From Miltoncostaeaceae bacterium (GTDB lineage: Bacteria; Actinomycetota; Thermoleophilia; Miltoncostaeales; Miltoncostaeaceae), in contig CAVORO010000003.1 in NCBI GenBank assembly GCA_963698665.1, positions 1,311,831-1,375,830 of the forward strand: a DNA stretch of 64,000 bases. The letters are read 5' to 3'. This document shows positions 2,167 through 54,246 of the stretch, piece after piece. How positions within the stretch are numbered: the first letter of the stretch is position 1; each line of letters begins with the position of its first letter. The notes beneath the pieces were generated by a model that saw only the letters and a list, made by a program, of their open reading frames with translations, searched no databases and was not told the origin of the DNA. Both the position numbers and the translations under genes were made by a program.

Positions 2167-3593
2167 GCGCCGGCGATCCTCCGCCGCGGGACCGACCGCG
2201 GACCGAGGGCCGACGGCCGCGCCACGACACCGATCTGATCGTCATCGGGGCGGGCATGGCCGGTATGAACGCCGCCGCGCGCGCGGTCGCCGCCGGTCGG
2301 CGCGTCACCCTGATCGAGCGCGGGCGCGTCGGCGGCACCTGCCCGACGCGCGGCTGCATACCGACGAAGGCGCTCATCCGGAGCGCCGAGGTCGCGCACG
2401 AGGCGCGGCGCGCCGGCGAGTTCGGCATCCGCGTGGGCGAGGTCGAGGTCGACTTCGCCGCGGTCATGGATCGGGTCCGCGGCATCATCGACCGGGGCTC
2501 GGCGGGTGCCCGGGCATACCTGGAGTCGCTCGAGGGCCTCGAGCTGGTGCTGGGCGAGGCGTCCTTCGAGGACGGGCGCACCGTGCGCGTCGACGGCCGC
2601 GTCGTCTCGGCGCCCGCGGTGATCGTGGCGACGGGCGCGGAGCCCGCGCGCGTCCCGGTCCCGGGACTCGACTCGACGCCGCACATGACGAGCGACGACG
2701 TCCTGGCGAGCTCCGAGCTTCCCGCGAGGCTGCTCGTGATCGGGGCGGGCCCGATCGCGCTCGAGCTCGGTCAGGCGCTCGGCCGACTGGGCGCGTCGGT
2801 GACCCTCGTCGAGGTCGCGCCGCGGCTCATGCCCGACGTCGACGGGGAGCTGACGGACGGACTCGGTGAGCTTCTGGCCGAGGAGGGAATCGAGATCCTC
2901 ACGGGTGTGCGAATCGAGCTCGTCGAGCCCGCGGGCGACGGGGTGCGGATGCGGATCGTCGCGGCGGACGGCGAACGGGTGCTGGAGGGCGACGCGCTCC
3001 TGGTCGCGACCGGCCGGTCCGCGGCGGTCGACGCCCTCGGGCTCGACGCCGCCGGCGTCGCCGGCGACGAGCGGGGCGTGCACGTCGACGCCCGGCTCGC
3101 CACAACCGCGCCCACGGTCTGGGCGGCGGGCGACGTGCTCGGTCCCAACTGGGGTCAGTTCACCCACATCGCACGCCGTCAGGGGGTGAGCGTCGCCCAG
3201 AACGCGCTCGGCGTCGACGTCCACGACGTTCCGCGCGACCTCGGCCCGCGGGCGGTGTTCACCGATCCGGAGCTCGTCACGATCGGGAGCACGGAGGCCG
3301 CGGCACGAGCGGCGGGACACGACGTCGTGGTCGGCCGGGGCACGTTCTCGGGCGGGAAGGCGCGGGCATGGGGCGAGGAGCGGGGCATGGTCAAGATCGT
3401 GGCCGACCGGGCGACGGGACGGCTGCTGGGCGCGGGTGTGCTCGCGTACCACGGCGCCGATCTCATCCATCCGGTGGCGGTCGCGATGGAGGCGGGGGAC
3501 GGGACCGGCGACCCCGTCGCGCGGGCCCTGCACGTGCACCCCACGCTCGGGGAGGTGGTCAAGTCCGCCGTGGAGGCCGCGGGGCGGGGGTGA
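2163..3593 (+). CDS. Class I pyridine nucleotide-disulfide oxidoreductase (dihydrolipoamide dehydrogenase / mycothione-reductase-like)
   Basis: FAD motif DLIVIGAGMAGMNAA, redox-active disulfide GGTCPTRGCIPTK, NAD motif LLVIGAGPIALE, and a C-terminal dimerisation region ending HVHPTLGEV. ATG 2163 overlaps the Crp stop (ATGA). Confidence 0.85.
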   Translation: MSAGDPPPRDRPRTEGRRPRHDTDLIVIGAGMAGMNAAARAVAAGRRVTLIERGRVGGTCPTRGCIPTKALIRSAEVAHEARRAGEFGIRVGEVEVDFAAVMDRVRGIIDRGSAGARAYLESLEGLELVLGEASFEDGRTVRVDGRVVSAPAVIVATGAEPARVPVPGLDSTPHMTSDDVLASSELPARLLVIGAGPIALELGQALGRLGASVTLVEVAPRLMPDVDGELTDGLGELLAEEGIEILTGVRIELVEPAGDGVRMRIVAADGERVLEGDALLVATGRSAAVDALGLDAAGVAGDERGVHVDARLATTAPTVWAAGDVLGPNWGQFTHIARRQGVSVAQNALGVDVHDVPRDLGPRAVFTDPELVTIGSTEAAARAAGHDVVVGRGTFSGGKARAWGEERGMVKIVADRATGRLLGAGVLAYHGADLIHPVAVAMEAGDGTGDPVARALHVHPTLGEVVKSAVEAAGRG

Positions 3594-3611
3594 CGCCGCC
3601 GCCGCCGGCCC

Positions 3612-3860
3612 TCAGTCGATCCGGGTGACCGCGGTCCGCCGGGCGGCGATGTAGCCGAGGCTCGAGACGACCCACGGCACCGCGTAGTTGGCGGCGATCC
3701 GTCCCAGCGTGAGCGTGTCGACGTCTCCCGCCGACAGTCTGTCGCCCAGGTTGATCAGCGTGAGCAGTGTCCCGACGACGAGGGCGATCGTGACCGTCCG
3801 CCGCATCGCCCATCGGTCGCGTACGTGCTCGACGCACGACCTCGCGACCGATGGGCTCAT
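3612..3860 (-). CDS. Small two-TM membrane protein, NrtS-like (weak family call)
   Basis: 82 aa from ATG 3860: MSPSVARSCVEHVRDRWAMRRTVTIALVVGTLLTLINLGD...ANYAVPWVVSSLGYIAA. The family assignment is from memory only. Confidence 0.5.
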   Translation of the reverse strand: MSPSVARSCVEHVRDRWAMRRTVTIALVVGTLLTLINLGDRLSAGDVDTLTLGRIAANYAVPWVVSSLGYIAARRTAVTRID

Positions 3861-4041
3861 GCCCTGACACCTGTCGTCCGGGGGGTGCGCGGGGGTGGGG
3901 TCGATCGCATGTGCACCCTTGTACACCCTCGCCGGGCCCGCCCGGTTTCCCCCGCGCCGTGCGCGGACCACGACCCGGCCGCGGGCGCACGGCGACCCCG
4001 GGTGCCGGTACACTCACGGCCGTGAGGTTGCGGGGACGCCG

Positions 4042-5685
4042 GTGACAGACACCACGACGCGCTACGTCTTCGTGACGGGAGGCGTCGTCTCCAGCCTCGG
4101 CAAGGGGATCTCCGCCGCATCCCTTGGCACGTTGCTGAAGGCGCGCGGCGTCTCGGTGACGCTCCAGAAGTGCGATCCCTACCTCAACGTGGACCCGGGC
4201 ACGATGAGCCCGTACCAGCACGGCGAGGTCTACGTCACCGACGACGGGGCCGAGACCGACCTCGACCTGGGCCACTACGAGCGGTTCACCGACGAGCGGC
4301 TGACGCGCATCAGCAACGTCACGACCGGCTCCGTCTACGACTCGGTGATCAAGAAGGAGCGCCGGGGCGACTTCCTCGGGGCGACCATCCAGGTCATCCC
4401 GCACGTCACGGACGAGATCAAGGCGCGCATCCGTCAGGTGGCGGCGACGAGCGGCGCCCAGGTCGTGATCGTCGAGATCGGGGGGACCGTCGGCGACATC
4501 GAGTCGTTGCCCTTCCTCGAGGCGATCCGCCAGATGCGCAACGACGTCGGCCGCGAGCACGTCGCGTTCGTGCACGTCACGCTCGTGCCCTATCTCGACT
4601 CGGTCGGCGAGCTGAAGACCAAGACGACCCAGCACTCGGTCAACGAGCTGCGTCGCATCGGCATCGAGCCCGACATCCTGGTGCTTCGCTCGAACCGTCC
4701 ATTGACGCAGGACGTGCGCAAGAAGATCGCCCTCTACGGCGGCGTGCCCGAGGACGCGGTGATCTCGGCGACCGACGCCGACGACATCTACGAGGTGCCG
4801 CTCCGGCTGGACCAGGAGGGCTTCGACCGCGTCGTCTGCCGTCGCCTCGGCCTCTCGCCGGCGCCCTCCGACCTGGCCGACTGGCGCCGGCTCGTCGACC
4901 GCATCCACGGTCTCGACGGCAGGGTCCGGATCGCGCTGGTCGGCAAGTACGTCGCCCTCCGCGACGCCTACCTCTCCGTGGCCGAGGCGCTCAAGCACGC
5001 CGGCATCCACCTTGGCGTCGAGGTCGAGATCGACTGGCTCGACGCGGAGGAGGCCGGGCTCGAGGGCGCGCTCGAGCGCGCGGACGGCATCCTCGTCCCT
5101 GGCGGCTTCGGCGGTCGCGGCATCGAGGGCAAGATCACGGCGGCCCGCTTCGCGCGCGAGAACGGCGTCCCCTACCTGGGGATCTGCCTCGGGATGCAGA
5201 TCGCCGTCGTGGAGTTCGCGCGCAACGTGTGCGGGATGGAGGGCGCGAACTCCTCCGAGTTCGATCCGGAGACGCCGTATCCGGTGATCGACCTCCTTCC
5301 CGAGCAGCGTCAGATCGAGGACCGAGGGGGCACGATGCGGCTCGGGAGCGGCCCCGTGCACTTGGTCGAGGGCACGCGCGCCCACGCGGCCTACGGAGGG
5401 GCGCCGGTCGTCTACGAGCGGCACCGGCACCGGTACGAGGTCAACCCGTCGCTGCGCCCGACGCTCGAGGAGGCCGGCCTGCTGGTCTCGGGCCGCTCGC
5501 ACGACACACGGCTGGTCGAGGTGATCGAGCTGCCGACGCACCCCTTCTTCGTCGCATCCCAGTTCCACCCCGAGTTCACCAGCCGCCCGACGCGTCCGGG
5601 CCCGCTGTTCCGCGAGTTCGTGGGCGCCGCAGCCGCCGCGCTGGGCCTCGAGACCGGCATCGCGACGGCGACCGGGGGGTCGTGA
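4042..5685 (+). CDS. pyrG: CTP synthase
   Basis: [24 protein letters not shown] at the N-terminus and a GATase domain with GICLGMQ. Start set at GTG 4042 within ORF 3895..5685. Confidence 0.95.
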
Positions 5686-49088: not shown

Positions 49089-49294
49089 GAGTGCCGGGCG
49101 ACGACGATCATCACCGGACGCTCCAGGTCCATCCCGAGGCCTGCCCCGAGGTGATCGACGCGGCCTACGCCGCCCTTCGCGAGATCGTGCTCCGCGACGA
49201 GTCCGACGACGCGCCCCGACGGCTCGCGGCGCTCATGCGGGCCCACCGTGCGCTGATCCTCGCCGCCCGAGGGGTGCCGCCGGGGCCCTCGTGA
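49085..49294 (+). CDS. Small protein (69 aa) with a J-domain-like N-terminal helix pattern (weak)
   Basis: GTG 49085 overlaps the polA stop (GTGA). VRVPGDDDHHRTLQVHPEACPEVIDAAYAALREIVLRDES... has high GC3. Confidence 0.45.
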   Translation: MRVPGDDDHHRTLQVHPEACPEVIDAAYAALREIVLRDESDDAPRRLAALMRAHRALILAARGVPPGPS

Positions 49295-49692
49295 GCCCCC
49301 CGGCGCACCCGCAGCGCCCGCTCCAGCCGCGGCTGGCGGGCGCGGTGGTCGCCGTGATGGCCTTCGAGTCGCTGCTGGTCGCCAGCCCCGCCGCGCTCGG
49401 CGCCGCGGCGCTCTTTGCGGCCGTCGACGTCCTCGGCGCGCGGTCGCCGTACGCCCTCGCGGCGGCGTGGCTCGCGCCCGCCGCGCCGCCGCGTGTCCCG
49501 GGCGGTCCCGGCCGCGTGGCCGCGATCGCCCGCGCGGTGGTCCTCGCTGGGGCGACGGCGCTTCTCGCCCGGGACGCGACCGTCGCCGCGGCGGTCCTCG
49601 CAGGGATCGTGGTGACCGAGGGGCTCCTCGCCGCGATCCTCGGCCGCAGCCTCCTCGGTGGACGGCCGTTCGTCCAACGGCGTGGCGACTGA
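49291..49692 (+). CDS. Small membrane protein (133 aa), unknown function
   Basis: GTG 49291 overlaps the previous stop (GTGA). It has 3-4 Ala/Leu-rich hydrophobic segments. Confidence 0.5.
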   Translation: MSPPAHPQRPLQPRLAGAVVAVMAFESLLVASPAALGAAALFAAVDVLGARSPYALAAAWLAPAAPPRVPGGPGRVAAIARAVVLAGATALLARDATVAAAVLAGIVVTEGLLAAILGRSLLGGRPFVQRRGD

Positions 49693-49905
49693 TGCGGTGC
49701 CCGTGCCGGCGGTCGCGTCGCCTGCCCGGCCGCTGATCCCGCGGGGTGGACGGGCCCCGGGCGTGGCGACCGGGTGTCCTCGCCGATGGCCGTCCGCCGC
49801 GCCGACGGGGGACGAGTCCAAGTTGTCAGGAATTGGTGTGCGGGGCGTTCAAGAACGCGTCGCCCCCTGCAGGAGTCGGCTGGGCGCGTCGATAGGTTGC
49901 GCGTG

Positions 49906-50865
49906 ATGGCGCCCCCGCCCGAAGGTCCAGCCCGCGCCGCCCCACGTGTCGCCGCCGCGCTCGGAGTGGTCGCGGCGGCCGTGCTCGCGGCGGCGCTCCC
50001 CCAGAGCGCCGACGCCAAGCGCGTCGAGCTGGGGGTCTACGAGGACGCGCCGCTGGTGAGCGTGCCACGGCTCGCCAAGACCGTCGGGCCACGAGGGACC
50101 AAGGTCATCTCGGTCTACGTGACGGCCGGCGCCAGCCTCGACCCGCGCATCGTGCGCCTCGCGCGCCAGCGCAAGGCGCGCCTCATGGTGAGCTGGATGC
50201 CGGACTCCGGCCGCGACGGGGCGAAGGGGGCGCGGTTCCGGCTGCGCGCCGTGAGCGGCGGTCGCTACGACGCCTCGCTTCGCAGGCTCGTGCGCCAGAT
50301 CGGCGGCCTTCGTCCGGCCGCGATCCTGCGCCCCATGCCCGAGCCGAACACGCCGTGGTACGCGTGGTCGGGCACGACCAAGGGCAACTCCGCCAAGGCC
50401 TATGTCAAGGCCTGGAACCGGGTGCGGACGGTCTCCAAGCGGGCGAACCGGCGGGTGCAGCTGCTCTGGGCGCCGTATGCCCGGAGCGTCCCCGAGCGCC
50501 CGGGCAACGCCATCGAGGACTACTTCCCCGGCGCCGCGAAGGTCGATCTCGTCGGGGCGAGCGCCTACAACTTCGGGAAGAAGCGCGGCCTGGCGTGGAC
50601 CGATCCCGAGCCGCTGTTCGAGGACGCCTACCGGACGGTGTCGGCCCTTTCGGCCAAACCGTTCTGGATCGCGGAGACTGGATCGACGTCCAAGGGCGGC
50701 GACAAGGCTGCGTGGATCAGGGCGCTCTCGCGCCTCGACGACGACATGCCCCGCCTGCAGGGCATGGTCTGGTACGACGTCCGCGACCGCACCGGCGATT
50801 TCCGGATCCGCCAGAGCGCGAAGACCACGCGGGCGTTCCGGGCGCTCGCGAGGGTGTCCAAGTGA
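49906..50865 (+). CDS. Secreted glycoside hydrolase, GH26-like
   Basis: From ATG 49906: signal peptide AAALGVVAAAVLAAALPQSADA. Blocks LMVSWMP...GGRYDASLRRL...ILRPMPEPNTPWYAW (acid/base Glu context) and FWIAETG (nucleophile context). The family call is from memory. Confidence 0.65.
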   Translation: MAPPPEGPARAAPRVAAALGVVAAAVLAAALPQSADAKRVELGVYEDAPLVSVPRLAKTVGPRGTKVISVYVTAGASLDPRIVRLARQRKARLMVSWMPDSGRDGAKGARFRLRAVSGGRYDASLRRLVRQIGGLRPAAILRPMPEPNTPWYAWSGTTKGNSAKAYVKAWNRVRTVSKRANRRVQLLWAPYARSVPERPGNAIEDYFPGAAKVDLVGASAYNFGKKRGLAWTDPEPLFEDAYRTVSALSAKPFWIAETGSTSKGGDKAAWIRALSRLDDDMPRLQGMVWYDVRDRTGDFRIRQSAKTTRAFRALARVSK

Positions 50866-52274
50866 GCGCACGGGCGCCCGCGCGTCGCCGTCACCGGCTG
50901 CGCCGCCCGAGCCCCGGCGGGGCGCAGCAGGCGATGACCGACGCAATGGTGGACCGGCTCATGTGGCGCACGGGCTTCGGCCCGACCGCCCGCGACCGAA
51001 AGCGCTTTCGCGGACGCGGTCTGCACCAGGCCGTCGACATGCTCATGCGGGCGCCCCAGGGGCGTCTGGTCGGCCCGATCCCGACGGTCCGCGACGTTCC
51101 GCTCGACCCCAACGAGGACGACCGGCACCTCGTGCTCGCATGGCTCGATCGCATGATCCGCACCCAGAACCCCCTCGTCGAACGCCTGACGCTCATGTGG
51201 CACAACCATTTCGCCACGAGCCGTGCCGAGGTCTCCCCGCCGCAGCTCATGACCCGCCAGAACGAGCTGCTTCGCCGCTACTCCGATCTGGCCGCCTACC
51301 CGACGTCGAACTTCCGGGCGCTCATCCGGGACGTCGGGCTCGACCCGGCGATGATGCGGTTCCTCAACAACGAGGACAACACGGCCGAGGAGATCAACGA
51401 GAACTACGGCCGCGAGCTGATGGAGCTCTTCGGCCTGGGCGTGCTCGACGCGACGGGGAAACCGCACTACTCCGAGGACGACGTACGCGAGGTCTCCAAG
51501 TCGCTCACCGGCTGGGTCCTCGACGACGACGACCCCGAGAACCCGAAGGTCGAGTTCGACGGCTCACGCTACTTCGACGGCACGAAGACCGTCTTCGGGC
51601 AGCCCGCAAACTACGACTACGCCGGCGTCAACGAGAAGGTGCTCGCGCATCCGAGCCACGCGCGGTTCATCGTGACCACGCTCTGGTCGGAGTTCATCCC
51701 GACGCCGCCGGACGAGGTCACCGTGAAGGAGCTGGTGCGCCTCTACAAGCGCACCAAGATGCGATTCCGGCCGGTCCTCACGCGAATCCTGACCCATCCC
51801 GACATGGTCGCCTCGCTCCGCGAGCCGAACATGATCAAGTCGCCGGTCGTCTACGGCGTCGGGATGATGCGGACGCTGGGGCTCGGGATCACCGACGAGA
51901 CCCTCCACTACTCCCTTCGGGACATGGGCCAGCTCCCGTACTTCCCGCCGACCGTGGCCGGCTGGGAGGGGGGCGACGCGTGGCTGAACACGAACACCGC
52001 CATCGAGCGTTTCCGGCTCGCCGACCGCCTGCTCCAAAAGACCTACGAGCCCCTTCCCGACAAGGAGCCCGAGGACGTCGCGACGGAGACCTCGAGCGAG
52101 GCCTTCATGCGCGCCTGGAGCGCCGTCGGGCGGCCCTGGGTCTCGCGCGGCTCGCGAAGCGCGCTGCTCTATTTCAGCCGAACGGCCAAGAGCAAGGACA
52201 AGTGGCAGCGCGTGGCCCGTCAGCGGGCGCTTCGCGCGTTCCTCCTCGGTGGCCCCGACGCCCAGGTGATGTGA
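50862..52274 (+). CDS. DUF1800 family protein
   Basis: RLMWRTGFGPT, LTLMWHNHFATS, MMRFLNNEDN, NENYGRELMELFGLGV, SKSLTGW, PPTVAGW. GTG 50862 overlaps the previous stop (GTGA). The alternative start is ATG 50934. Confidence 0.8.
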   Translation: MSARAPARRRHRLRRPSPGGAQQAMTDAMVDRLMWRTGFGPTARDRKRFRGRGLHQAVDMLMRAPQGRLVGPIPTVRDVPLDPNEDDRHLVLAWLDRMIRTQNPLVERLTLMWHNHFATSRAEVSPPQLMTRQNELLRRYSDLAAYPTSNFRALIRDVGLDPAMMRFLNNEDNTAEEINENYGRELMELFGLGVLDATGKPHYSEDDVREVSKSLTGWVLDDDDPENPKVEFDGSRYFDGTKTVFGQPANYDYAGVNEKVLAHPSHARFIVTTLWSEFIPTPPDEVTVKELVRLYKRTKMRFRPVLTRILTHPDMVASLREPNMIKSPVVYGVGMMRTLGLGITDETLHYSLRDMGQLPYFPPTVAGWEGGDAWLNTNTAIERFRLADRLLQKTYEPLPDKEPEDVATETSSEAFMRAWSAVGRPWVSRGSRSALLYFSRTAKSKDKWQRVARQRALRAFLLGGPDAQVM

Positions 52275-53785
52275 TGAGCGACGAGATCCAGCCCCCCGAG
52301 GGCCCCGGTCCGGACCCGGGCATGGGCGATGCGGTGATCTGCGCCGACTGCGCCGCGAGCGACAGCGCGGCGCGTGACGTCGACCCGGTCGACCGGATGC
52401 CGATCCCCGGCGAGGCGCTGGCCGGGTTCCCCGACGGCGTGCCGCAGGGGGCGCGGGGGTGGCGCCGAGCGGAGTTCCTTCGCAACGCCGCGCTCGGCAC
52501 GGCCGCCGTCTACGCCGCCACGCGCATCGACTGGACCCGTGCCTTCGAGGCCGCCGCGGCCGAGCCCCAGCCCGAGCGAAAGCTCGTGATGATCTTCCTC
52601 AACGGCGGCAACGACGGCCTCAACACCATCGTGCCGGTCGGCGAGTACGACGCGTACAAGAAGGCGCGCGAGCGCCTGGCGCGCGAGCGCGACCCCGTCG
52701 CCGCGGCGGCCGACGGGGGGCCCGGATCCAACGTCGGCTCCATCCCGATGCCGGGCACCAACGGGGGCCATGCCTGGGCTCAGGTCTGCGTCGGCGGGCA
52801 GTCGAACAACGGCTTCGACCGCGGCTTCGACACGCTGTGGGGCGACGGCGGCGGGGGGCCGGGATCCGACCTGGCGGTCTTCCCGGCGGCCGACTACACA
52901 CCGCCCAACCGAAGCCACTTCGACAGCCGCGACTATTGGTTCTCGGGCAACACCGAGAAGATGGACACCGGATGGCTCGGCCGTTGGCTCGATCTCTACG
53001 GCTCGAAGGAGAACCCGCTCCAGGCCGTCTCGCTCGACTCGAACATCTCCAAGCAGCTTCGTGCGACCGCCGCGCCGGTGAGCGCGGTGACCGGGCTGAA
53101 CGGGGTCCAGTTCCGCGTCAACGGCGTCTGGGACGGCCTGATCGACACCACGGAACAGATGGCGCCGCTCTCGGCGGTGCCGACCGGCCAGGGCAACGAG
53201 GCGCTCGCCCTGGCTCGCCAGGTCTACGGCCAGACGGTCCAGGTCTCACGTTCGCTTCGCAGCCTGGCCGGTGCTCCCGGTGGCGCGGGATACCCCAACT
53301 CGCAGATCTCACAGCGGCTGCAGTTGGCGGCGACGCTCCTCGCGGCCGACCTCGGCACGCGCGTCGTCACCATCGACTGGGGCTCGTTCGACACGCACGG
53401 CAACCAGCTGGGAAGCCAGGATCCGCAGCTGCGCGTGCTCTCGGCCGCGCTCGCGGCCTTCCGGGACGACCTCTCGGCCCGCGGCGTCGGCGACAAGGTC
53501 GTGACGTGCGTGTTCAGCGAGTTCGGTCGCCGGGTGGAGAGCAACGGGCCGGGAACCGACCACGGCGCGGGCGGGCTCATGATGCTGATGGGCCCCAGGG
53601 TCCGGGGCGGGTTTCGGGGTGAGTTCCCGGGGCTCACGTCGCTCGACCGGGGCGACCTCCGGGTCACCACGGACTTCAGGAGCGTGTACGGCTCGCTCAT
53701 CGCCGACTGGCTCGGCGGTGACCCGGGCGCGGTGATCCCCGCGGGGTCGTTCGGCACGACCCTCGGGACACCGATCCTCAAGTGA
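52274..53785 (+). CDS. DUF1501 family protein (sulfatase-like fold) with a twin-arginine motif
   Basis: WRRAEFLRNAALGTAAVYAA (Tat-like), LVMIFLNGGNDGLN, DWGSFDTHGNQ, SEFGRRVESNGPGTDHG. ATG 52274 shares 1 nt with the DUF1800 TGA. The alternative start is ATG 52397. Confidence 0.85.
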   Translation: MSDEIQPPEGPGPDPGMGDAVICADCAASDSAARDVDPVDRMPIPGEALAGFPDGVPQGARGWRRAEFLRNAALGTAAVYAATRIDWTRAFEAAAAEPQPERKLVMIFLNGGNDGLNTIVPVGEYDAYKKARERLARERDPVAAAADGGPGSNVGSIPMPGTNGGHAWAQVCVGGQSNNGFDRGFDTLWGDGGGGPGSDLAVFPAADYTPPNRSHFDSRDYWFSGNTEKMDTGWLGRWLDLYGSKENPLQAVSLDSNISKQLRATAAPVSAVTGLNGVQFRVNGVWDGLIDTTEQMAPLSAVPTGQGNEALALARQVYGQTVQVSRSLRSLAGAPGGAGYPNSQISQRLQLAATLLAADLGTRVVTIDWGSFDTHGNQLGSQDPQLRVLSAALAAFRDDLSARGVGDKVVTCVFSEFGRRVESNGPGTDHGAGGLMMLMGPRVRGGFRGEFPGLTSLDRGDLRVTTDFRSVYGSLIADWLGGDPGAVIPAGSFGTTLGTPILK

Positions 53786-54246
53786 GCCGCACCGCCAGGG
53801 TCGGCTTCGTGCTCGTGTGCGTGGCGCTCGTCGGCGCGGCGTCCACCCTGGCCACGGCGCGCATCCACCGCCTGCAACTGCCTCCTCCGCCGCCGCTTCC
53901 GACCGCGACGGCCGTCGACGAGACGGAGTGGTCGGTCCGCCCGGCGCAGCGGGTGCTTGCGGCGGGGGACGTGCGGCTGCGCGTCTACAACCGCGGCGAG
54001 GACGACCACGACCTCGTGCTGGTCGACTCGGACGGCCTCACGCACAAGGTCGACCTGGCTCCCGGCGAGACGCAGACCATCCGGGCACGTCTGGCGCCGG
54101 GCACGCACCGGCTCTACTGCTCGCTGTTCGCCGGCACGCCCGAGTCCCACGAGGCCAGGGGGATGTGGGCCGACATCCGCGCGGTCCGCGACCCCGCCCG
54201 CGCGCCGATCGAGACCCTGACGAGGCAGCTCAGCCGGGCCTGGTGA
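53782..54246 (+). CDS. Cupredoxin-like (type-1 copper site-like) exported protein
   Basis: N-terminal hydrophobic anchor/signal VGFVLVCVALVGAASTLATA. Candidate copper ligands are in DDHDLVL and YCSLFAGTPESHEARGM (Cys...His...Met). GTG 53782 overlaps the DUF1501 stop (GTGA). Confidence 0.65.
   Translation: MSRTARVGFVLVCVALVGAASTLATARIHRLQLPPPPPLPTATAVDETEWSVRPAQRVLAAGDVRLRVYNRGEDDHDLVLVDSDGLTHKVDLAPGETQTIRARLAPGTHRLYCSLFAGTPESHEARGMWADIRAVRDPARAPIETLTRQLSRAW

Follow-up and report, generated by a model that had tools for sequence, protein, structure and literature searches.

A conserved gene cassette of Thermoleophilia places the DUF1800/DUF1501 pair between a GH26-like hydrolase and a predicted type-1 cupredoxin

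What the DUF1800 and DUF1501 proteins do, both being among the more widespread bacterial families without an assigned function, is the question raised by a locus of Miltoncostaeaceae bacterium (assembly GCA_963698665.1, contig CAVORO010000003.1). The stretch of DNA analysed in this study, hereafter the window, is 64,000 nucleotides long and carries, at positions 49,906 to 54,246, four co-directional open reading frames for a GH26-like glycoside hydrolase, a DUF1800 protein, a DUF1501 protein and a small cupredoxin-like protein. A first-pass annotation, made from the letters alone, had read them as a single translationally coupled unit for redox-assisted processing of an extracytoplasmic polysaccharide or of the cell envelope. 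Our analysis suggests, with a probability that we put at roughly 45%, that DUF1800 and DUF1501 form an exported complex that leaves the cell through twin-arginine translocation (Tat), is served by a blue-copper carrier and acts together with the GH26 enzyme on an extracellular or envelope glycan.

The four reading frames and their three junctions were found exactly where the first-pass annotation had placed them, and all of these lie on the plus strand. The GH26-like gene (49906..50865; 319 amino acids; identified by phmmer against the PDB) and the DUF1800 gene (50862..52274; 470 amino acids; Pfam PF08811) share a GTGA start/stop overlap at 50862..50865. The DUF1800 gene in turn runs into the DUF1501 gene (52274..53785; 503 amino acids; Pfam PF07394) through a TGATG stop/start overlap at 52272..52276, and a second GTGA overlap at 53782..53785 leads from DUF1501 to the cupredoxin gene (53782..54246; 154 amino acids; identified from an AlphaFold2 model and Foldseek). 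All three overlaps were read directly in the sequence. Analysis of GC content by codon position revealed third-position values (GC3) of 0.92-0.94 across all four genes, in a window with a GC content of about 72%. The start of the GH26-like gene at ATG 49906 is supported by the same measure, GC3 going down to 0.73 upstream of that codon.

Related loci were collected by scanning one genome per species with a cupredoxin alignment, which gave 80 loci from Miltoncostaeaceae, Solirubrobacteraceae, Gaiellales and unclassified Thermoleophilia, and gene order was determined by tblastn with the window proteins. Since the loci were recovered via the cupredoxin, the survey bears on the presence of the pair next to the cupredoxin and not on the presence of a cupredoxin next to every pair. 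The order GH26 - DUF1800 - DUF1501 - cupredoxin was found in about 75 of the 80 species-level genomes at 45-70% protein identity, and the exceptions are short contigs or frame-broken loci; the four genes are thus syntenic in related genomes. The same cassette was seen again on two metagenome contigs (L089 and L090) with independent gene calls and precomputed Pfam annotation. Closest among public sequences is L001, a Thermoleophilia genome assembled from a metagenome, with 97% protein identity across the region.

Comparison of the 80 loci revealed at least five different kinds of flanking context. In the window, polA and two small genes lie upstream of the cassette and rpsA lies downstream, and these polA/rpsA flanks recur only in L001 among the related loci; other loci are flanked by glyA, SDR, upp and a WecA-like gene, and elsewhere by DUF2254 or acetyltransferase genes. 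The order is constant while the flanking contexts differ, and the cassette therefore moves as a unit. A 4-nucleotide overlap recurs at 38 of 57 scorable GH26/DUF1800 junctions, 42 of 56 DUF1800/DUF1501 junctions and 30 of 32 DUF1501/cupredoxin junctions; the choice of start codons in this count favoured overlaps, yet a start codon must stand at the exact position, and the overlaps are more frequent than expected by chance. In the loci recovered in this way the cupredoxin family always accompanies the DUF1800/DUF1501 pair. The single, tightly coupled four-gene unit of the first-pass annotation is therefore borne out by its overlaps and by its synteny in related genomes.

Two further arrangements of these genes were observed. 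On a Miltoncostaea oceani plasmid (NZ_CP064357.1, L081, 3919-7104) the order is cupredoxin - DUF1800 - DUF1501; the junctions overlap there too, and a GH26 gene is missing. In a Gaiellaceae genome (L061) the main cassette is faced head-to-head by another DUF1800-DUF1501-cupredoxin copy, which is partly broken and lies at 2298-4745 on the minus strand. These observations bear on the simplest alternative, namely that the four genes have unrelated functions and are neighbours by descent only. Most of the loci come from one class, and shared ancestry adds to their synteny; yet the order is kept at 45-70% identity through at least five changes of flank, overlaps persist at the junctions, and on a plasmid the cupredoxin has joined the pair again in another order, so that we regard neighbourhood by descent alone as very improbable. 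As a separate observation, a secreted protein of about 800 amino acids abuts the start of the GH26 gene in 33 loci (L009, L016-L022, L031-L035, L043-L053 and others; for example L035:3498-5957). This protein is rich in Gly, Ala and Ser with repetitive G-G-x-G-type stretches, has no Pfam match and is absent from the window.

Pairs from outside the clade were also compared. Twelve distant pairs, from plasmids or megaplasmids of Thermus, Sphingomonas, Vibrio, Ensifer, Azospirillum, Paracoccus, Agarilytica, Acidisarcina, Chondrinema, Persicobacter, Paraburkholderia and Ralstonia, all keep the two-gene order DUF1800 - DUF1501, and their neighbours vary. On a Sphingomonas parapaucimobilis plasmid (L083, 1050-12275) the pair lies within a cytochrome c oxidase cluster in the order coxB, ctaD, DUF1800/DUF1501 pair, heme o synthase, assembly protein, cox3 and SURF1, a placement that may be a coincidence or may be a link with copper or respiration. 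On Ensifer adhaerens plasmid pC (L087, 7197-8629) the pair adjoins a divergent 'periplasmic heavy metal sensor' and an extracytoplasmic-function (ECF)-type sigma factor.

The first protein of the cassette scores 18.7 bits against Pfam GH26 (PF02156), below the cut-off of 20.2, and a phmmer search of the PDB aligned about 200 of its residues with the Clostridium thermocellum lichenase CtLic26A (CelH, PDB 2bv9) at an expectation value (E) of 2.8e-16. In this alignment Glu146 and Glu257 correspond to Glu109 and Glu222 of CtLic26A, which we take to be the acid/base and the nucleophile, respectively, and both residues are invariant in 25 orthologues. The orthologues on L089 and L090 have precomputed PF02156 matches at E<=1e-5. 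Compared with CtLic26A, the window protein shares the two catalytic glutamates and differs in its low identity, its score below the Pfam cut-off and the lack of a carbohydrate-binding module or dockerin. A general secretory (Sec)-type signal is present in every orthologue, in the window at residues 1-37 (ending in PQSADA, before KR). With both glutamates kept, the protein can be taken, on its alignment, to be a catalytically intact member of the GH26 family, and the Sec-signal hydrolase proposed at first reading is borne out.

Many GH26-like orthologues have a cysteine right behind the signal that is paired with a cysteine near the C-terminus; the two are gained and lost together, and the window protein has neither. 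Since the N- and C-terminal cysteines co-vary, a terminal extracytoplasmic disulfide would fit. The protein was also considered as a lipoprotein, and this was rejected, as the cysteine after the signal co-varies with the C-terminal one and the residues preceding it make a poor lipobox.

The last protein of the cassette, which begins with a signal or anchor helix (residues 1-26), had been proposed to hold Cys, His and Met in the arrangement of a type-1 copper site. At 23.6 bits it stays under the Pfam Cupredoxin_1 cut-off of 27. The AlphaFold2 model, with a predicted local distance difference test score (pLDDT) of 89.6, gave 267 Foldseek matches in the PDB at E<=1e-3, all of them cupredoxins. 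The top matches were auracyanin (6kol), AcoP (7z3f), the Bacillus anthracis Cupredoxin_1 protein (4hcf; template modelling (TM) score of 0.81 on the target) and CuA domains, and EfeO was also among the 267. Four candidate copper ligands were located in the model, namely His76 (54007-54009) at the start of the inner strand 76-81, Cys113 (54118-54120) at the end of the penultimate strand 107-113, and His123 (54148-54150) and Met128 (54163-54165) in the loop before the last strand 129-135. All four residues are kept in every readable orthologue across the 80 loci, and a neighbouring serine varies beside the invariant copper cysteine. The modelled fold is unambiguously that of a cupredoxin, with a predicted type-1 ligand set in the canonical topological positions, so that the initial proposal is upheld.

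Set beside type-1 (blue/green) cupredoxins, namely auracyanin, AcoP, plastocyanin and the ba3-oxidase CuA domain, the protein shows the same fold (Foldseek probability 1.0) and the same placing of the ligands: one His is on the inner strand, Cys closes the penultimate strand, and the second His and Met follow in the next loop. The window protein, whose copper ligands are predicted, differs in a longer Cys-His loop and in its Pfam score below the curated cut-off. Its ligand spacing is C-x9-H-x4-M, and the plasmid paralogue of M. oceani has the same ligand set in the classical spacing C-x4-H-x4-M. Searching 1.84 billion representative proteins with the profile gave 3,895 matches. In the best 150 of these, the long matches, which are the closest relatives beyond the family, consist of cupredoxins in tandem, of the plastocyanin/azurin and the sulfocyanin type, and none is a cupredoxin fused to DUF1501 or DUF1800. 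The tandem relatives P0174, P0179, P0189, P0197 and P0201 hold 4-10 cupredoxin domains each; P0179 also has a CBM96 carbohydrate-binding module, and relative P0243 has a cytochrome c.

A cupredoxin need not be an electron carrier. It may instead handle copper for the exported complex as a chaperone, buffer or metallation factor, or the cassette as a whole may serve copper homeostasis. The best family-level matches, Cupredoxin_1 and the EfeO N-terminal domain, would suit such a role, as would the presence among the top structural matches of a copper- or zinc-loaded Cupredoxin_1 protein without an assigned role (4hcf/4hcg), the unusually long C-x9-H loop, several Met and His residues of DUF1800 that are invariant in the clade, and the Ensifer and Sphingomonas neighbourhoods with their metal sensor, sigma factor and oxidase assembly genes. 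However, the full His/Cys/His/Met set in every readable orthologue and the azurin-like C-x4-H-x4-M of the paralogue are signatures of electron transfer and not of a chaperone; of the Met and His residues in DUF1800, Met164 alone is kept across phyla; and the mature DUF1501 domain is without the conserved Cys/Met/His cluster typical of Cu(I) sites. Copper handling is therefore considered an unlikely role for this protein, and electron transfer is preferred.

The DUF1800 protein matches PF08811 over profile positions 1-416 of 419 with 282.3 bits (E 1e-83; cut-off 26.1). Its AlphaFold2 model is mostly helical (pLDDT 86.9; predicted TM score 0.87), and Foldseek found no structural counterpart in the PDB, the best match having an E of 1.7 and TM scores being at most 0.14. 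Cytochrome c peroxidase appeared as a structural relative and was rejected as noise (E 3-9; TM about 0.1). No sequence relative was found in the PDB by single sequence or by profile, and the model suggests a fold that is absent from that database. The residues invariant across phyla are the polar E180, N181, R184, E185 and Q357 together with M164, and they are not typical metal ligands; several Met and His residues are invariant within the clade, and of these only Met164 is kept across phyla. A hydrophobic N-terminus or signal was found in none of about 60 readable orthologues, so that the missing signal noted in the window holds throughout. The N-termini are basic, with the consensus P-R-R-H-R-L-x-L-P-P followed by a first conserved helix MVDRLxWRxGFGP; in the window the basic motif is RRHRLRRP (residues 9-16; 50886-50909).

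The DUF1501 protein is a divergent member of its family, matching PF07394 with 96.2 bits (E 3e-27; cut-off 27) over profile positions 121-338 only. The twin-arginine motif, expected about 60 residues into the protein, was identified by pattern recognition as RRAEFLR at residues 64-70 (52463-52483), with Arg64-Arg65 in the model that starts at ATG 52274. Behind it lie a weakly hydrophobic h-region to about residue 100 and an Ala-rich c-region, a Tat-type N-terminus. R65 is invariant and R64 nearly so in the orthologues. The motif is preceded by an extension (residues 1-62; 52274-52459) that is conserved in 28 orthologues as ...A-[IL]-[RK]-C-A-D-C-A-[RA]-S-D-S...P-[IL]-P-x-E-A-x-x-G-F-P-D-G-V-P..., with C23, D25 and C26 invariant (CxDC; C-A-D-C in nearly all, at residues 23-26 and 52340-52351 in the window). 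Since the extension is conserved and its GC3 is 0.94, ATG 52274, the start in the overlap, is the real start of the gene. The alternative start at 52397 was rejected, the preceding 60 or so residues being conserved as protein with coding-type GC3.

Distant DUF1501 proteins align only from about residue 101 onward and have a twin-arginine motif near their own N-terminus; the extension is thus specific to this clade. The DUF1501 paralogue on the Miltoncostaea plasmid has a weaker version of it and two twin-arginine motifs. A metal hook, a partner-binding site and an export checkpoint are possibilities for its role. In the domain behind it, Asp114, Ser214-His215, Asp373/His375, Asp429-His430, R419 and N424 are invariant across phyla. 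Members of the alkaline-phosphatase superfamily (sulfatases, phosphodiesterases and phosphomutases) have an alpha/beta fold, a conserved Asp, a Ser/Thr/formylglycine nucleophile and Asp/His metal ligands. The Asp, Ser-His, Asp-x-His and Asp-His residues of DUF1501 would form the metal-and-nucleophile constellation of this superfamily, and Pfam presumably places DUF1501 in the alkaline-phosphatase clan.

Export of DUF1800 with its partner had been put forward as speculation at first reading. In Tat hitch-hiker pairs, such as the small and large subunits of hydrogenase and DmsAB, one subunit lacks a signal and is carried out of the cytoplasm by binding to a partner that has a Tat signal. The window pair resembles them in having one twin-arginine partner and one signal-less partner that are translationally coupled, and in belonging to a family that is extracytoplasmic in other lineages. 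It differs in that co-export is read here from gene sequences and that a redox cofactor assembled in the cytoplasm is known for neither protein. In the distant pairs, all 12 DUF1501 proteins carry a twin-arginine motif close to the N-terminus, in most cases inside the first 10-12 residues. Among 11 distant DUF1800 proteins (the Thermus gene is disrupted), six bring a Sec-type or lipoprotein signal of their own (Sphingomonas, Vibrio, Agarilytica, Acidisarcina, Paraburkholderia and Ralstonia) and five have no signal (Ensifer, Azospirillum, Paracoccus, Chondrinema and Persicobacter). Because six of the 11 homologues carry a signal of their own, the DUF1800 family works outside the cytoplasm. DUF1800 is thus self-exported in half of the lineages and signal-less and Tat-coupled in the rest, a pattern that matches the hitch-hiking prediction. 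These counts strengthen the earlier speculation and fall short of proof, and hitch-hiking of DUF1800 with DUF1501 is regarded as plausible. On a plasmid of Acidisarcina polymorpha (L093, 246-4013) the DUF1800 protein has 1,256 amino acids; it starts with a Sec signal and is extended at the N-terminus by a long additional region, which suggests added extracellular domains.

The same signal pattern could be explained if DUF1800 were a cytoplasmic maturation chaperone of the TorD/DmsD/NapD kind, acting on the Tat-signal extension of DUF1501 and staying behind after export. Such a chaperone would be signal-less, as DUF1800 is in all clade members, and made 1:1 with its client, as the translational coupling of the two genes would provide; the conserved 60-residue CxDC stretch before the arginines is not a usual feature of signal peptides and might serve as its binding site. 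It is difficult to reconcile with six of 11 distant DUF1800 proteins having their own signals, one of them with a long N-terminal region of extracellular type, and with a protein of 470 amino acids whose invariant polar residues E180, N181, R184, E185 and Q357 look like those of an enzyme or a substrate-binding subunit. A chaperone role is accordingly judged quite improbable, and co-export of DUF1800 with DUF1501 is the preferred reading.

A further feature connects DUF1800 with the cupredoxin. These two unrelated proteins of one operon both start with a basic, proline-followed peptide, RxHRLxLPP, which in the window cupredoxin reads RIHRLQLPP (residues 27-35; 53860-53886). The pattern R-x-H-R-x-x-x-P was found in 67 of 78 cupredoxins, nearly all of the 67 having it at positions 25-35, directly after the A-x-A site of the signal. 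Among DUF1800 proteins it occurs in 29 of 64, at residues 9-32 in 28 of the 29, and most of the others carry an RRRRL variant. It is absent from all GH26 and DUF1501 proteins of the 80 loci, its background in the translated flanks is 0.15 per 1,000 residues, and the plasmid paralogues of both DUF1800 and the cupredoxin are without it. The shared peptides may dock onto a common partner.

The mechanism proposed here would assign a part to each of the four proteins. The cassette would be a self-contained operon for a four-protein extracytoplasmic unit with the DUF1800/DUF1501 pair as its core. DUF1501 would be the catalytic subunit, of the metallo-esterase type, exported folded through Tat; the helical DUF1800 would bind it in the cytoplasm and most likely leave the cell with it by hitch-hiking. 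The Sec-exported type-1 cupredoxin would pass single electrons to or from the DUF1800/DUF1501 complex, and the GH26-family endo-beta-glycanase would cut the backbone of the same substrate. With these roles, the unit would most likely process an extracellular or cell-envelope glycan by a reaction that includes a redox step, much as the first-pass annotation had suggested.

Several results weigh against this proposal. A cupredoxin or GH26 gene is annotated or recognisable beside none of the 12 distant pairs, the check being weaker for the four records that are unannotated. The association is seen within the clade, in about 75 of 80 loci, and not beside the distant pairs; GH26 and the cupredoxin are on this count an innovation of this clade, and electron transfer may not be intrinsic to the pair. 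Within the class, the survey was made through the cupredoxin and covered pairs that stand next to one. DUF1501 matched no solved structure in the PDB by sequence or profile, an hhalign comparison with one neighbouring sulfatase-domain protein gave a probability of 0.2 (a single target and uninformative), and Pfam scans of fragments at E<=10 gave no link between DUF1501 and sulfatases. To our knowledge no member of the alkaline-phosphatase superfamily needs an electron carrier. A search of sequencing runs for the region returned only DNA metagenome runs and no RNA run.

The proposal can be taken a step further, to DUF1800/DUF1501 as a new class of two-subunit extracytoplasmic enzyme for redox-coupled glycan chemistry in place of a plain hydrolase; we advance this wider claim as doubtful. 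Such an enzyme would consist of one alkaline-phosphatase-like subunit and one helical subunit without a solved relative, would come together in the cytoplasm and leave the cell by Tat hitch-hiking, and in Thermoleophilia would be fed by a dedicated blue-copper protein. The RxHRLxLPP peptides would be docking arms on a common partner and the CxDC extension an assembly checkpoint.

A less specialised use of the same proteins is also conceivable, in which DUF1501 is a secreted phospho- or sulfo-esterase that works with the secreted GH26 glycanase to make nutrients available from foreign polymers, for instance beta-glycans of plants or algae, and neither has a part in the cell's own envelope. GH26 enzymes are typically mannanases, lichenases and beta-1,3-xylanases that act on foreign polysaccharides, and distant pairs adjoin TonB receptors, sugar porters, phosphoesterases or a sialidase-family gene. 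In addition, DUF1501 is greatly expanded in the polysaccharide-degrading Planctomycetes and Verrucomicrobia (PMC3542564). Against such foraging, the occurrence in 80 single-species representatives and the placement between polA and rpsA in the window fit a core function better than a niche trait, no conserved transporter or regulator stands beside the cassette, and in 33 loci the cassette is coupled to a large Gly-rich secreted protein of the surface type. Foraging, which differs from the proposed glycan-processing unit only in the origin of the substrate, is on balance rather unlikely.

The exported, redox-served complex proposed above has two published parallels, and it fits both. In Planctomycetes and Verrucomicrobia, DUF1501 is paired with partners that bear cytochrome c and often carbohydrate-binding domains (PMC3542564), and DUF1800/DUF1501 pairs travel with horizontally transferred bacterial chitin-synthase operons (PMC5122149). 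The chitin-synthase-operon pairs share with the window an upstream DUF1800, tight coupling, a DUF1501 with a Tat signal and a link to a polysaccharide enzyme. Different here are the flanking GH26-like hydrolase and the dedicated cupredoxin, as well as the clade-specific CxDC extension of about 60 residues and the RRHRLxLPP N-terminus of DUF1800, none of which was found in the 12 distant pairs. The DUF1501-PSCyt1/PSCyt2/PSD1 modules of Planctomycetes, Verrucomicrobia and Lentisphaerae (PMC3542564) likewise combine a Tat-exported DUF1501 1:1 with a second exported protein, an attached electron-transfer module and a carbohydrate link, which consists of binding domains there and of a glycoside hydrolase here. 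In the window, however, the partner is DUF1800, and the electron-transfer element is a separate blue-copper protein and not a fused cytochrome c. No similarity of DUF1800 to the PSCyt1, PSCyt2 or PSD1 families was detected with Pfam, the partner matching DUF1800 only, and the cassette is an analogue of the Planctomycetes-Verrucomicrobia-Chlamydiae-type DUF1501-PSCyt/PSD1 module and not a member. Full-text literature naming DUF1501 or DUF1800, in the excerpts available, assigned no function to them and described no cupredoxin or GH26 partner; within that literature, the link of the pair with a cupredoxin and GH26 appears to be unpublished.

The surroundings of the cassette in the window were analysed as well. 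The GH26-like gene is preceded by a 213-nucleotide non-coding gap (49693..49905) with flat codon-position GC values of 0.76/0.73/0.75, which is the probable promoter region of the cassette, and the 110-nucleotide gap 3' of the cassette has a GC3 of about 0.83 and no codon-position pattern. The upstream gap gave no match to the sigma-70 consensus and none to Rfam, and no promoter, terminator, riboswitch or operator signal stood above background at the locus. Upstream of the gap, a 133-amino-acid membrane protein (49291-49692) is chained to polA and has a weak DUF4395 match (20.2 bits, under the cut-off); the 69-amino-acid open reading frame preceding it has no match. Both small frames are conserved only in L001.

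For the two families, the value of this locus lies in what it attaches to them. DUF1501 is present in dozens of copies in Planctomycetes, and a clade in which the pair is lastingly tied to a predicted type-1 copper protein and to a glycoside hydrolase with intact catalytic residues offers two handles on its function, namely electron transfer and a beta-glycan substrate. The signal pattern makes DUF1800 and DUF1501 a candidate new Tat hitch-hiker pair. Cultured relatives are on offer, such as Miltoncostaea, where the paralogous cupredoxin-DUF1800-DUF1501 module on the M. oceani plasmid belongs to a cultured strain and is thereby useful for experiments. The cassette does not reveal the mechanism, yet it makes a pair that has long been without a function experimentally approachable.

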